Shown one piece after another: positions 7,241-12,861 of a DNA stretch of 24,957 nucleotides (within the stretch, counting starts at the first letter, position 1; each line of letters begins with the position of its first letter). The translations under genes and the position numbers were made by a program. The notes under the pieces are model-generated. The model worked only from the letters and a program-made list of their open reading frames with translations, was not told the DNA's origin and did not search any database. Source of the stretch: Clostridia bacterium (GTDB taxonomy: Bacteria > Bacillota > Clostridia > Oscillospirales > Acutalibacteraceae); the NCBI GenBank assembly GCA_900769775.1, contig CAAGHT010000086.1, forward strand, positions 1-24,957, written 5' to 3'.

Positions 7241-7296
7241 GTATGTGTATAGTTCTATTTCTTAGTGGAACAAATAATTTTTACGAGGTAATTATT

Positions 7297-7857
7297 ATGA
7301 AAAAGTTTGCAGCAATCATCCTTGCAATCGCACTTCTCATCGTTCCTATGAGCATTTCCTCTTCTGCTGAAGGAGCAATCAACGAGTTTGAAAAGAAGGT
7401 TCTTGAAGCACTTGACGAGAATGTTAAGGTTGGTGACAAGTATTTCCATGTTCCTCAGGAGTACATCACTCAGGCTGAGAACTTCCTTAAGACTATCGAT
7501 ATGACCGAAGCTCAGGCTGATACCATTCTTGCTAAGATCGCTGATTCCAAGCAGATTATCATCGATAACAATATAACCTCTACTTCTAACCTTAAGGCTC
7601 TTCCTAAGGAAGCAAAACAGAAGATTCTTGACAACGGTAAGGCAGCTTCTGCAGCAGTTAATGCAGTTCTTACCTATGACGGAACAAATGTAACCGTTAC
7701 CTATAACGGAACTCCCGTATTTGAGGACGCTCCTATCGTTAAGGTTACTGGTGCTGAGGTTGACTATACCGCTATCGCACTTGCAATGGCAGGTCTTGTT
7801 ACCATGCTTGTTGCCGGCTTTGCATTAGCTTCTAAGAAAGGTATCCTTTCTAAATAA
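7297..7857 (+). CDS. Small secreted, sortase-anchored surface protein (non-canonical VKVTG sorting signal)
   Basis: Start reassigned to ATG 7297 (GAGG SD). Signal peptide MKKFAAIILAIALLIVPMSISSSA; C-terminal VKVTG + hydrophobic helix + KK tail; adjacent to a sortase gene. Confidence 0.8.
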   Translation: MKKFAAIILAIALLIVPMSISSSAEGAINEFEKKVLEALDENVKVGDKYFHVPQEYITQAENFLKTIDMTEAQADTILAKIADSKQIIIDNNITSTSNLKALPKEAKQKILDNGKAASAAVNAVLTYDGTNVTVTYNGTPVFEDAPIVKVTGAEVDYTAIALAMAGLVTMLVAGFALASKKGILSK

Positions 7858-8535
7858 TTGATGCTAAGAAGAATAACAAAAAAGCTGACGGAATATATCC
7901 TATTTCCGTTAGCTTTTTTTCTTTCGGGACTTTTGTTTCTTTACCTGGTGTTATCCCCTTTTGTAAATTTTACGCTTACAGCCTGGTCGCTTTTTTCATC
8001 CGACTCTAACACCCTATACGGCGAAGAAATTCATAAGGATATATTCGGAGAGAATAAGCTTGTCGGCTATAAGGAAACTGTACCCTCAAGCCTTATCACC
8101 TACCCTACTCACGGCACTAAATATGCCGAGATTACAATAACCGATGAGAACACTGTTTACGTTTGCCCCCTCTTCTTTGGTGACAGCAAGTCGATACTCA
8201 GAAAGGGTGTCGGCCAGTATATGGGAAGCAACTTCCCCGGTGAAGGCAAAGCGATTATCGTTTCGGGTCACAACAACTCATATTTCAATGCTCTTCAGTA
8301 TCTCGATGCAGGTGAAACAGTAACCTTAGAAACAAACTATGGCACCTTTATTTACGAGGTAACCGAAACGGCAATAAAGCCCAATACCGATAAATCGGCT
8401 CTGAGGCTTGGTTCTGAGGAGGAAACCCTCGTAATGTACACCTGTTATCCCTTTGACCAACGCGGTCTCACCTCAAAACGATACTATGTTTATACAAAGC
8501 TCGTTTCGGGTCCGCGCGTGCTGTTAGATAAGTAG
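7858..8535 (+). CDS. Sortase, class D-like
   Basis: N-terminal basic residues and TM anchor; catalytic His in SGHNNSYF, Cys in LVMYTCYPF, Arg in KRYYVY; the TCYPF motif is typical of class D. Start is TTG 7858 or ATG 7861. Confidence 0.88.
   Translation: MMLRRITKKLTEYILFPLAFFLSGLLFLYLVLSPFVNFTLTAWSLFSSDSNTLYGEEIHKDIFGENKLVGYKETVPSSLITYPTHGTKYAEITITDENTVYVCPLFFGDSKSILRKGVGQYMGSNFPGEGKAIIVSGHNNSYFNALQYLDAGETVTLETNYGTFIYEVTETAIKPNTDKSALRLGSEEETLVMYTCYPFDQRGLTSKRYYVYTKLVSGPRVLLDK
7884..7920 (+). terminator. Putative intrinsic terminator inside the 5' end of the sortase CDS
   Basis: GCTGACGGAA / TTCCGTTAGC 10-bp stem (one G.U) followed by T7 and preceded by A6, about 25 nt after the stop codon of the surface-protein gene. 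Confidence 0.65.
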
Positions 8536-8543
8536 GTGGCGAT

Positions 8544-9383
8544 ATGAATATAGATAAAACTCTTCTCACAAGAAGAAGCATTTGCGCCGCTACTGCCTTT
8601 GTCCTTTCGGTAACAATTATGCTTTGTTCGCTCATTGTTACAGCTGCTATCGCTTGCAGAAAAGAATATATTTCTTACATTGAGGATAAAAGTAATTATG
8701 CGGAGCTTTCTCTCAAAACGCTAAAAACCGAACTTGCCGACCTTACTATACCGGGCGGCTTCCCTCTTGATTTCTTTGATTCGCGAATTGATGAGGCTCT
8801 TTATAAAGAACGCGTAGCCGAATCAATTGTAGCAGGCGCAGATAACTCTGCCCTTTCTTACAGCAGCGACTCTGTTGCAAAAGAATTCTATGAAATGACT
8901 GCAGAATATGTTCTCGCCGAGGATGGAGAAATTTTGCCCGAGGTGGAAGAAGGACTGCACGGACTTTCTAAGGAATGCGCAAAGGTTTATATTAAGTATT
9001 CGAACCCCGCTTCTTTAAAGCTTGTTTTTAAATACTTCCCTTCTCTCAAAAAGCTGCTCATTTTTGCTGCACTAATAGTCGGCGTTCTGCTTATTGCGGC
9101 TGCCGTTTTCCTCTATCTGCTCTGTCGTGGCCGTGACCTTTTAAAGCATCTGTTCTTCTCACTCTCTGCCGCGGCGCTTCTTAGTGGAGTATTACCACTC
9201 TGGCTTTTATTATCAAATGAAATTGAAAGAATCTCCCTGACACTTCCAGCACTTCATTCCTTTGCCGTATGTTATATTGAGGGACTACTTACAATACTGC
9301 TAATTATTTCCGCAGCTTTCCTTGCTGCATCAATCGTCTTAGGCTTAATAAAGCTCGTAAGATTTATAAAAGCAAGTAAATAA
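8544..9383 (+). CDS. Hypothetical integral membrane protein (about 4 TM, large loop after TM1)
   Basis: 279 aa ORF with AGGTGG SD; one N-terminal hydrophobic segment, a ~130 aa acidic loop and three C-terminal hydrophobic segments. No family recognised. Confidence 0.75.
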   Translation: MNIDKTLLTRRSICAATAFVLSVTIMLCSLIVTAAIACRKEYISYIEDKSNYAELSLKTLKTELADLTIPGGFPLDFFDSRIDEALYKERVAESIVAGADNSALSYSSDSVAKEFYEMTAEYVLAEDGEILPEVEEGLHGLSKECAKVYIKYSNPASLKLVFKYFPSLKKLLIFAALIVGVLLIAAAVFLYLLCRGRDLLKHLFFSLSAAALLSGVLPLWLLLSNEIERISLTLPALHSFAVCYIEGLLTILLIISAAFLAASIVLGLIKLVRFIKASK

Positions 9384-9387
9384 AATG

Positions 9388-9418
9388 AAGCCTCGTGCAA
9401 AAATGCACGAGGCTTTTT
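9388..9418. terminator. Bidirectional intrinsic terminator
   Basis: AAGCCTCGTGCA-AAAA-TGCACGAGGCTT perfect 12-bp stem, with a T-run on + and an A-rich flank for -, between convergent units. Confidence 0.85.
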
Positions 9419-9424
9419 AATGCC

Positions 9425-9602
9425 CATAGCAGCGTGAGAAAAAAGAAAGTAGGAGGTCGGCGGGCAGAAAACACACACGAAAAACTGCCCTTATTGCACC
9501 TTGCAAGGAGAAAGGAGGAGCCTTGCAAGGAGCTGCATATACCTGAAAGAGAAAAGGTATATGCATATGGAGGAAGAAAAAACTCACGCCGCTTCGGCTA
9601 TG
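9425..9602 (-). ncRNA. Candidate multi-stem structured RNA (possibly Clostridiales-1-like motif)
   Basis: Closing stem (CATAGC..GCGTGAG with CTCACGC..GCTATG) encloses three hairpins: GGGCAG/CTGCCC, CCTTGCAAGG/CCTTGCAAGG and TGCATATACCT/AGGTATATGCA. Strand inferred only from an A-C mismatch that becomes G.U on the minus strand. Confidence 0.6.
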
Positions 9603-9625
9603 TCAAACGAATCGCTTCGTTAAAA

Positions 9626-10993
9626 TCAGTTTGAGCTGAAATAGTTTTTCCAGCCGTATTTAGTGCCGTTGCATTCGGGCACGGGCCAGTCGCAGTTAGA
9701 CCAATCGTGGTTATCCTCTGCCATTCCGGCACTTGTGCGATTAAAGTAGTAGTGATACGCATCGTTCGGGTCTCCGCCTATGGGGTCATCGAAGGTGATG
9801 TCACACATATACCACTCGCCGTCAAGCTGAACGGCATTCCACTTGTGTCCGCCGCCCGCCGTTCCGACTACTCCCGTACACTGAATTCCTACCGCATGCA
9901 GAAGTGTCTGAAATGCTTCGGAGTAAGATTCGCAAACGCCGTACTTATTTACAAGAATACCATAGGAAGTCCAGTCATCAGGACCTACACCCTGCCATTT
10001 TGCACCGAGATTATAGAAGGAATCGAGAAGAATTCGGTCATAGATAAGGCGCTCTTTCCAGACATCAGGTGCATTTGCGGGAATAGTACTGATAATGCGG
10101 TTAACCTCTGCCTTAAACAACTTATCCTTTGTGATAATACTATCTCTAAGCTCGGGTGTCAGAGTGGCGGGAGTATGACCATAGTTGCAATACTCTACAC
10201 CATCTGTATAGCAGAATATTATTTCACTCTTGCTGTCACTATGCTTATACATAGTTGCGGTATTGCCTAAATACCATACATCGGGGTTATCAAACATATA
10301 GAGAAAATATATCATATATTCCTTGTTTTCGTGGATATTGATATCAAACTTAACACTTTTCTCCAAGCCTCTTACAGCCTTGTCGATATTTTTATAATAT
10401 CTCTTGTGCTCTTCATCGAGAAGCGAATAGAGATACTTATTTTCGATTGAAAGAGGTCTGTGCTGTTGGCCTGTCGTATAGGTATAGGTTGGTGCCGACG
10501 GCTTCACGGGAGCAGGGGTCGGCTCGGGCTCGGGAGTCGGCTCGGGCTCGGGTGTCGGTTCAGGTTCGGGAGTCGGTTCAGGTTCGGGTGTCGGTTCAGG
10601 CTCAGGGGTCGGCTCGGGAACCGGTTCAGGCTCAGGGGTCGGTTCGGGTTCGGTGGTCGGCTCAGGCTTAGTTATGGGCTTTGGAATAGGCTTTCTATCA
10701 AGATTGGGGATAGCCGGCTCTATTTCCTCATCCTTTTCGGGAGTTGTCATCTCAATCACAACATTACCGTCGCCCATATCGTTTTCTACAACATCCTCGC
10801 TAAAAAGCCCTTTGAAATCCTCAAAATCTTCTATTTGGTTTACCTTGATTTTGTCCTTTAATAAATCAGAGGGTTCTGTGCTTTGGGCGGATGATGTATT
10901 TTTCTCTGCCGTATTTGGGTGATTTTGCTCGCCACATGCGGCAAGTGTTAATATAAAGGTCGCCGCTAACAATAACGCTAATATTCTTTTCAT
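9626..10993 (-). CDS. Lipoprotein with Pro/Glu/Thr linker and C-terminal transglutaminase-like (papain-fold) domain
   Basis: Lipobox LAAC; (PEPTPE)n linker; Cys-His-Asp triad in GVCESYS, HKWNAV and CDITFDD. Confidence 0.85.
10513..10667 (-). repeat. 18-bp coding tandem repeat (about 8 units) encoding PEPTPE
   Basis: Degenerate GGNGTCGG(C/T)TC(A/G)GG(C/T)TC(A/G) units with variation mostly at wobble positions. Confidence 0.9.
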
Positions 10994-11141
10994 AATTTTT
11001 ACCTCACTTTTTCGTTTACACCTATATATTCCGCCTCAATTTTGTTTTTTTGGGGATTTTTGTAAAAAATTCAAAAAAACAATAAATAATCTTGATTTTG
11101 TATATTTAATTTACAAAAATGAAACTATCTCAATATAAAGA

Positions 11142-12391: not shown

Positions 12392-12861
12392 TTACTTACT
12401 ACCCATAAATGGGTCCTACGGGTCGAAAAGGCTTAACTGGTCACTTTCCTTATCCTGCTTTAATTGATTTGAGATATATTCCTTTATTGCCTTTGTGTTT
12501 TTACCCGCAGTATCTACGTAATATCCCTTACACCAAAACTCGCGATTTCGGTATGCAAATTTCATATTCCCCCATTTTTGAAATATTAAAAGCGAGCTCT
12601 TTCCTTTTAGATATCCCATAAACCCCGAAACGCTCATTTTGGGCGGGATACTGACTAGCATATGTATATGGTCTGGCCACACTTCCCCTTCAACTATCTG
12701 AACACCTTTCCATTCGCAAAGTTTTCTCAATATTTCTCTTATCTCTAACCGTTTATCTTCGTAAAATACTTTTCGTCTGTACTTGGGCGCAAAAACTATA
12801 TGGTACTTGCAATTCCATTTTGTATGTGCTAAACTATTTGTACTGATTCTTCTTTTTTCAT
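12392..12861 (-). pseudogene. tnpA: IS200 transposase TnpA, apparently disrupted
   Basis: NSLAHTKWNCKYHIVFAPKYRRK...DHIH (HUH)...FWCKGYY...KEYISNQ. The SD-linked ATG at 12861 is out of frame (stops after 10 codons), and an in-frame TAG at 12416-12418 precedes a DPFMGSK tail. Confidence 0.8.

Follow-up and report, generated by a model that had tools for sequence, protein, structure and literature searches.

A structured multi-hairpin element in the probable 3′UTR of a Clostridia lipoprotein mRNA, with features of C-rich anti-Shine-Dalgarno RNAs

RsaE, RsaG, and RNAIII carry unpaired C-rich anti-Shine-Dalgarno (anti-SD) motifs between hairpins, and PMC2790875 describes binding of SD sequences by such motifs in RsaE and RNAIII as well as Hfq-independent expression of the Rsa RNAs. 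A second precedent is the Staphylococcus aureus icaR mRNA, in which an anti-SD motif within a long 3′UTR pairs with the ribosome-binding site of the same message (PMC3868564). The element described here resembles RsaE, RsaG, and RNAIII in having unpaired C-rich anti-SD motifs between hairpins, in a host apparently without Hfq, and in keeping these motifs while its stems vary. It differs from them in motif (UCCC there, CCUCC/CUCCU here), in having both ends closed within one multiloop, in the lack of any promoter of its own among those we could find, in its occurrence in just two species, and in showing no sequence or Rfam match to them.

The element is a 165-base stretch between two convergent genes, predicted to fold as a branched structure, in a window of 24,957 nucleotides that comprises the whole stretch of DNA analysed. 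The source genome (G000) is 64% complete, and the genome of a sister species used for comparison (G024) is 99% complete. The features of the locus are as follows.

7858–8535, plus strand: sortase gene, in the same cluster as the gene that follows
8544–9383, plus strand: gene for a putative membrane protein of 279 aa, which ends the plus-strand gene cluster
9388–9415, both strands: shared bidirectional intrinsic terminator with a 12-bp hairpin and a U-rich tail on each side; kept in G024
9413–9418, minus strand: A-tract AAAAAG (AAAAGAA in G024), corresponding to the plus-strand U-tail of the terminator; could be the third strand of an ENE-like triplex
9429–9438: left arm of the outer stem, pairing with 9583–9592; one CG>TA compensatory change
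9439–9461: left unpaired linker, A6-GAAAGU-AGGAGGU on plus and ACCUCCU...CUUUUUU (anti-SD 3 and a U-run) on minus
9462–9490: hairpin 1, with 6 bp and a 17-nt loop, AC-rich on plus; two compensatory double changes in G024
9499–9530: hairpin 2, with 10 perfect bp and a 12-nt loop; each arm is the palindrome CCTTGCAAGG, and the loop holds GAAAGGAGG, anti-SD 2 on minus
9534–9565: hairpin 3, with 11 perfect bp and a 10-nt loop, GAAAGAGAAA, similar to loop 2; an optional module that G024 lacks
9566–9582: right unpaired linker, GGAGGAAG-A6 on plus and UUUUUUCUUCCUCC, anti-SD 1, on minus
9583–9592: right arm of the outer stem, which has 10 pairs, one of them A·C on plus
9606–9621: small hairpin directly after the lipoprotein stop codon, with no good U-tail; a different hairpin occupies this place in G024
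9626–10993, minus strand: gene for a predicted lipoprotein of 455 aa with PE/PT repeats and a transglutaminase-like domain

Three other features of the neighbourhood deserve mention. The sortase gene adjoins a gene for a 204-aa protein (both within 7243–8535, plus strand) that has a hydrophobic C-terminal tail, matches no Pfam family, and is probably a sortase substrate. A block of ~29 bases upstream of the lipoprotein start (10994–11030, minus strand), possibly a leader or operator, is almost identical in G024, where the surrounding region diverges. Finally, an IS200-type Y1 transposase gene (12416–12820, minus strand) is missing from the colinear G024 block.

The 178 bases spanning the element folded at –60.6 kcal/mol (z –6.65) on the plus strand and at –62.1 kcal/mol (z –7.29) on the minus strand, and 0/200 shuffles were as stable on either strand. 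The three hairpins lay exactly where the initial annotation had drawn them, as did the GGAGG motifs of the plus strand (AGGAGG at 9451, AAAGGAGGAG at 9511, and GGAGGAAG at 9569). The outer stem, drawn there between 9425–9438 and 9583–9602, does pair, but its conserved part is confined to the two ten-base arms listed above; an extra CATAGC/GCTATG pairing (9425–9430 with 9597–9602) competes for outer-stem bases, and its 5′ arm is lost in G024. The description of the loops and linkers as SD-like held for their purine-richness and their three GGAGG copies but not for the hairpin loops, which carry just one copy (in loop 2), with two in the multiloop linkers and none in loops 1 and 3. Three copies exceed the dinucleotide-shuffle expectation (p=0.001 of 5000 shuffles; p=0.023 for the two copies in G024). 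Purines account for 73 of the 88 unpaired bases on the plus strand, and this skew was the strongest among those windows, from 1052 intergenic windows of the source genome, that had ≥45 unpaired bases and a folding energy below –40 kcal/mol. Six-frame translations of the two copies shared no reading frame or peptide, and we rejected a small protein gene or type I toxin on these grounds.

One homologue was found, at the same locus of G024 within a colinear block of ~75% identity, and no further copy appeared in either genome, so that the element is single-copy in both. The G024 copy retains the outer stem and hairpins 1 and 2 and is missing hairpin 3. Compensatory double changes to other Watson-Crick pairs were present at 3/25 aligned pairs, with 12/50 sites changed (permutation p=0.004), and one further hairpin 2 pair was deleted on both arms when the register was set by hand. 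These compensatory changes support the earlier proposal of a structured element, which lies in the probable 3′UTR of the minus-strand lipoprotein mRNA; of the functions proposed with it, anti-SD pairing is still our best guess. The unpaired segments, including the three SD/anti-SD motifs, are identical at 53/61 positions (87%), compared with 621/1258 (49%) of the four-fold sites in neighbouring genes. Nevertheless, the 87% identity is not clearly above background, because across 120 orthologous intergenic regions, the two genomes have a median identity of ~80% (0.80–0.84 by class, with a lenient alignment). The element as a whole (101/144) falls below the intergenic background, with stems varying more than loops. 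Because intergenic DNA in this genome pair is conserved anyway, selection on the fold is better supported by the comparison than special selection on the loops. In loop 2 of G024, CCUCC is replaced by UCUCC on the minus strand, and pairing with GGAGG would persist through a G·U wobble.

Wider searches used a model built from the two sequences, in whose alignment hairpin 1 is out of register; in the large searches, no more than 17 candidates were scored for each genome, and the patterns were exact. Within the genus, a DNA search matched 3/27 genomes, two of them only as 19–30-nt scraps, and the model matched 7/27 at E≤0.5, with G024 at 147.7 bits and the others at ≤19.8 bits. Model searches of the family (5/150 genomes, all ≤21.4 bits) and of relatives (5/150, consisting of G024 and four genomes at ≤26.8 bits) and a DNA search of the family (2/400 genomes) gave no homologue beyond G024, and the seven weak loci inspected proved to be starts of genes, coding DNA, or intergenic sequence unrelated to the element. 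An architecture pattern had 3/400 matches versus 6 control matches, with two new loci scoring ≤9.9 bits, and a pattern scan of the species genomes gave 37 matches, one of them true and most others ribosome-binding sites followed by ATG starts. In viral sequences, one pattern matched 83 times (80 of 83 scored; the highest score, 22.7 bits, fell in a stretch that appears to be coding) and a second matched 0 times. Metagenomes yielded 0/259 by protein and 117 pattern matches, none homologous among the 80 of 117 scored, and searches of plasmids and phages gave no homologue. An unrelated locus noticed along the way (L423; G357:C4, ~286100–286500) contains a duplicated unit consisting of a ~50-base GC hairpin and a purine-rich segment, with a CCTACTTTCTT/AAGAAAGTAGG hairpin, and has no Rfam or model match.

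Orthologs of the upstream gene are present in 16/27 other genus genomes, and the element follows the gene in 1/15 of those inspected (G024); in the remaining genomes, either a plain terminator or a tRNA gene takes its place. Close lipoprotein orthologues in G001, G026, and G027 also lack the element. It is therefore not linked to either neighbour, and its origin or arrival probably dates to the common ancestor of the G000 and G024 species. In G001, G026, and G027 (L031, L032, and L033), a ribosome-binding site and a short co-directional ORF stand 3′ of the lipoprotein gene, in the element's place.

Because of its location, after the lipoprotein stop codon and before the sole good terminator, which is the shared one, the element would by default be transcribed from the minus strand, and the lipoprotein mRNA would carry it inside a 3′UTR of ~210 nt. 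We infer expression of the minus strand because no good terminator was found ahead of the element on that strand; the sole terminator-like site flagged nearby (minus strand, 9415–9388) is located after it. Plus-strand transcription should stop before the element, and no sigma-70-type promoter was flagged near it. Predicted unpairing of the three motifs was 0.97/1.0/1.0 in the window and 0.95/1.0/0.98 in G024 on the minus strand versus 0.73/1.0/0.86 and 0.51/0.97/0.86, respectively, on the plus strand, where the first GGAGG is partly paired. The initial annotation had read the strand from a single A·C mismatch, an argument that fails because G·U pairs in G024 favour the plus strand; across the two copies, wobble-type changes point to both strands. 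In context, the window copy folded at –97.5 on minus versus –93.7 on plus, and the G024 copy at –74.0 on plus versus –62.4 on minus. The z-scores for G024 were –2.65 on plus and –1.05 on minus, where 33/200 shuffles folded as well. The consensus fold was nearly even (–34.1 vs –35.5).

If the plus strand were nonetheless transcribed, by terminator read-through or from an unrecognised promoter, three start-less SD mimics or the repeated GAAAG loops might titrate 30S subunits or an RNA-binding protein. The better folding of G024 on plus, with several G·U pairs, fits this idea, as do the sequence of loop 2, AGAAAGGAGG, which we take to be a full SD, and the GAAAG(G)AG shared by loops 2 and 3. Modular sponges vary in hairpin number, and hairpin number varies here (3 vs 2). 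CsrB/RsmZ-type sponges have many GGA motifs in short hairpin loops, and GGA is found in 1/3 hairpin loops of the element. A CsrA/GGA-type sponge on the plus strand, as proposed in the initial annotation, is unsupported because CsrA (PF02599) was found in 0/5 genus genomes, including the 99%-complete G024, with controls matching in 3/14; Hfq and TRAP were each likewise found in 0/5 of these genomes, G024 included. SprF1, which according to PMC8938821 binds ribosomes through a purine-rich stretch, would resemble the element in its purine-rich single strand if plus were expressed; the element differs in that no toxin ORF is conserved and no plus-strand promoter was found. With a terminator directly upstream, the first GGAGG partly paired, and the minus strand of the window folding slightly better, we consider a plus-strand function rather unlikely.

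Our best explanation, a tentative one, is that the minus-strand RNA is an RsaE/RNAIII-like anti-SD RNA from the lipoprotein 3′UTR that would pair with ribosome-binding sites of other mRNAs. In such a mechanism, rigid stems would keep the three CCUCC/CUCCU motifs, as well as the U-runs, single-stranded, the exposed motifs would pair with the ribosome-binding sites and thereby block translation initiation, and RNase cleavage may free the element as an sRNA, which would act in trans without Hfq. First, all three motifs were predicted to be 0.95–1.0 unpaired on the minus strand of both genomes. Second, the A-rich-plus-SD, SD, and SD-plus-A-rich-spacer parts of a Firmicute initiation region, in what we take to be its consensus, have their complements in the linkers and loop 2. 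A target scan over 625 ortholog pairs yielded no specific target: for loop 2, one gene, presumably LexA-like from its sequence features, ranked first in both genomes, but 5/40 controls matched this result, and the gene was rejected as a target. Start sites in these scans were picked with an anti-SD consensus that we assumed, because neither assembly yielded a 16S 3′ end. Counting against this reading are, besides the missing target, a comparison confined to two sequences, the better folding of G024 on plus, the high intergenic background identity, and the use of CCUCC where the Rsa RNAs have UCCC.

The anti-SD motifs could alternatively act in cis, on the lipoprotein's own ribosome-binding site. 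The icaR message offers a precedent (PMC3868564), with a long 3′UTR bearing an anti-SD motif as here, and conservation of the lipoprotein leader between G000 and G024 is good. Unlike icaR, the element shows no preferential pairing with its own ribosome-binding site: for the four single-stranded segments, the initiation region of the lipoprotein gene ranked 417–723 of 1153 in G000 and 702–1268 of 1600 in G024. Because these ranks are mid-list in both genomes, we rejected cis pairing, to which we would give only the slimmest chance.

A rival account is that the element is a palindromic spacer of REP type whose only role would be to stabilise the lipoprotein mRNA at its 3′ end or to buffer convergent transcription, with incidental SD words. 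Perfect inverted repeats can also persist by template-switch repair. These genomes commonly have multi-hairpin elements adjacent to terminators, and those with 7-mer repeats occupy 7/48 convergent regions in G000 and 4/62 in G024, mostly next to a terminator; regions of 120–420 nt were counted, and the element itself is absent from the count because a spurious ORF was called at its position. One 7-mer family occurs at ~21 places in G000 and ~19 in G024, one such copy occupies the same locus in the two genomes with 89% identity, and each genome has genes of the Y1 transposase family. In E. coli, REPs located between convergent genes are associated with raised expression of the two genes and act as 3′UTR stabilisers and terminators (bioRxiv 10.64898/2026.03.23.713779). 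The element shares with REP/BIME-like palindromes its multiple hairpins and its position beside a terminator between convergent genes, but it is single-copy in both genomes, has no repeat unit or 7-mer repeats, and contains long unpaired purine/pyrimidine strands: about half of its bases are unpaired, with purines on one side, and sequence variation is greater in its stems than in its loops. At least three GGAG[GA] words occur in only 1/48 and 0/62 of the other convergent regions, and mostly inside stems in that one case. A link to four local repeat families was rejected, as the element is unlike all of them (best E 2.6). On balance, we regard a purely REP-like role as conceivable and somewhat doubtful.

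The local repeat with AATGCAG 7-mer arms, which enclose as many as three hairpins, adjoins terminators in convergent intergenic regions (G000:C36:7780-7935; G000:C67:2152-2381; L372:1440-1662; L374:15956-16163), occurs at the ~21 and ~19 places given above, and has no Rfam match in the loci scanned. Further REP-like multi-hairpin repeats are built on GCGATAT, ATTCATG, and GTTATAT units (G000:C53:3157-3417, C60:8695-9095, C107:1216-1526; C117:698-989; L372:9615-9855; L397:9989-10297). A structured unit that follows tRNA genes, some copies of which end in a duplicate of the tRNA 3′ end, is present at 5 places in G000 and 7 in G024 (G000:C146:1480-1600, C85:3290-3560; L018, L019, L025).

The two linkers are near mirror images, with a mirror score reached by 0/2000 shuffles in the window and p=0.0005 in G024, although part of this symmetry comes free because GGAGG is its own mirror image. 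On the minus strand, U6C lies opposite U6C inside the outer stem (U5G opposite U5C in G024), with the A-tract ~20 bases downstream in the same register. This arrangement evokes the ENE elements of PAN and MALAT1, whose geometry is reviewed in PMC7583470; these likewise have opposed U-rich strands beside G-C pairs, with a G-interrupted genomic A-tract farther downstream. A bacterial ENE-like pyrimidine triplex can thus be imagined in the minus-strand 3′UTR, in which two mirror U/C strands would clamp a purine strand, either the pre-terminator A-tract, shielding the 3′ end from exonucleases, or in trans the A-rich/GGAGG ribosome-binding site of a target mRNA, with pH sensitivity through C·G-C triples. 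The register fits both genomes, with 6/6 isomorphic triples for AAAAAG in the window and 6/7 for AAAAGAA in G024, and the runs are U6/U6/A5 in the window and U5/U5/A4 in G024, each one base shorter; such shortening was seen in 64/304 intergenic runs, so that three together would have a chance of ~0.009 if independent. Set against this fit, the triplex was found post hoc from n=2 sequences, every bidirectional terminator supplies such an A-tract, and the G024 third strand has G at a C·G-C position, leaving one non-isomorphic triple. In addition, the G and AA of the A-tract overlap the terminator stem, and neither an upper helix closing the U-rich loop nor A-minor adenosines are present: the loop opens into the multiloop, and GGGCAU(U) stands 5′ of the A-tract. 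Neither the literature searches, among the matches listed, nor the ENE section of PMC7583470 showed a bacterial example. We consider the triplex improbable; if true, it would extend ENE-type 3′-end protection, or recognition of ribosome-binding sites by triplex formation, to bacteria.

The element might instead work as DNA, through cruciforms, H-DNA from the purine mirror repeat, or the two CCTTGCAAGG palindromes as operator sites 22 bp apart. Both strands fold about equally well, as seen in the consensus energies above and with DNA parameters in the window (–29.9 vs –30.8), and the palindromes are two helical turns apart. The G024 DNA, by contrast, folds weakly (–14.5/–13.2), uses G·U-type pairs, and has an imperfect second palindrome, and the mirror tracts are short and 80–120 bp apart. 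A DNA-level role is accordingly very improbable in our estimation.

Comparison with catalogued RNAs returned no family. Rfam gave 0 gathering-score matches in the window, and at E≤10 over 9200–9800 there were 16 weak matches, all far below cut-off. None was Clostridiales-1 (RF01699), which the initial annotation had suggested from a presumed four-stem layout. The element shares a clostridial host and several stems with this family, but the family's covariance model gave no match even at E≤10, and the sequence character differs, the two alignment rows seen in PMC2864571 consisting of low-complexity GCAU/GUGC repeats. A second 6S or SRP RNA was rejected as well, as the element has no Rfam match and the housekeeping genes sit elsewhere (SRP RNA in both genomes; 6S RNA in G024, with none found in G000). 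Neither Rfam nor, among the matches listed, the literature searches turned up a description of the element. It is a lineage-restricted structured element that belongs to no listed family and works most plausibly like the C-rich anti-SD RNAs.

If pairing with the ribosome-binding sites of other mRNAs is its true function, the element would be an unlisted, Hfq-independent regulator born in a 3′UTR of a barely studied Clostridia lineage with small genomes. Its modular hairpin, gained or lost between two species, would then be useful, if narrow in reach, for understanding how sRNAs arise.
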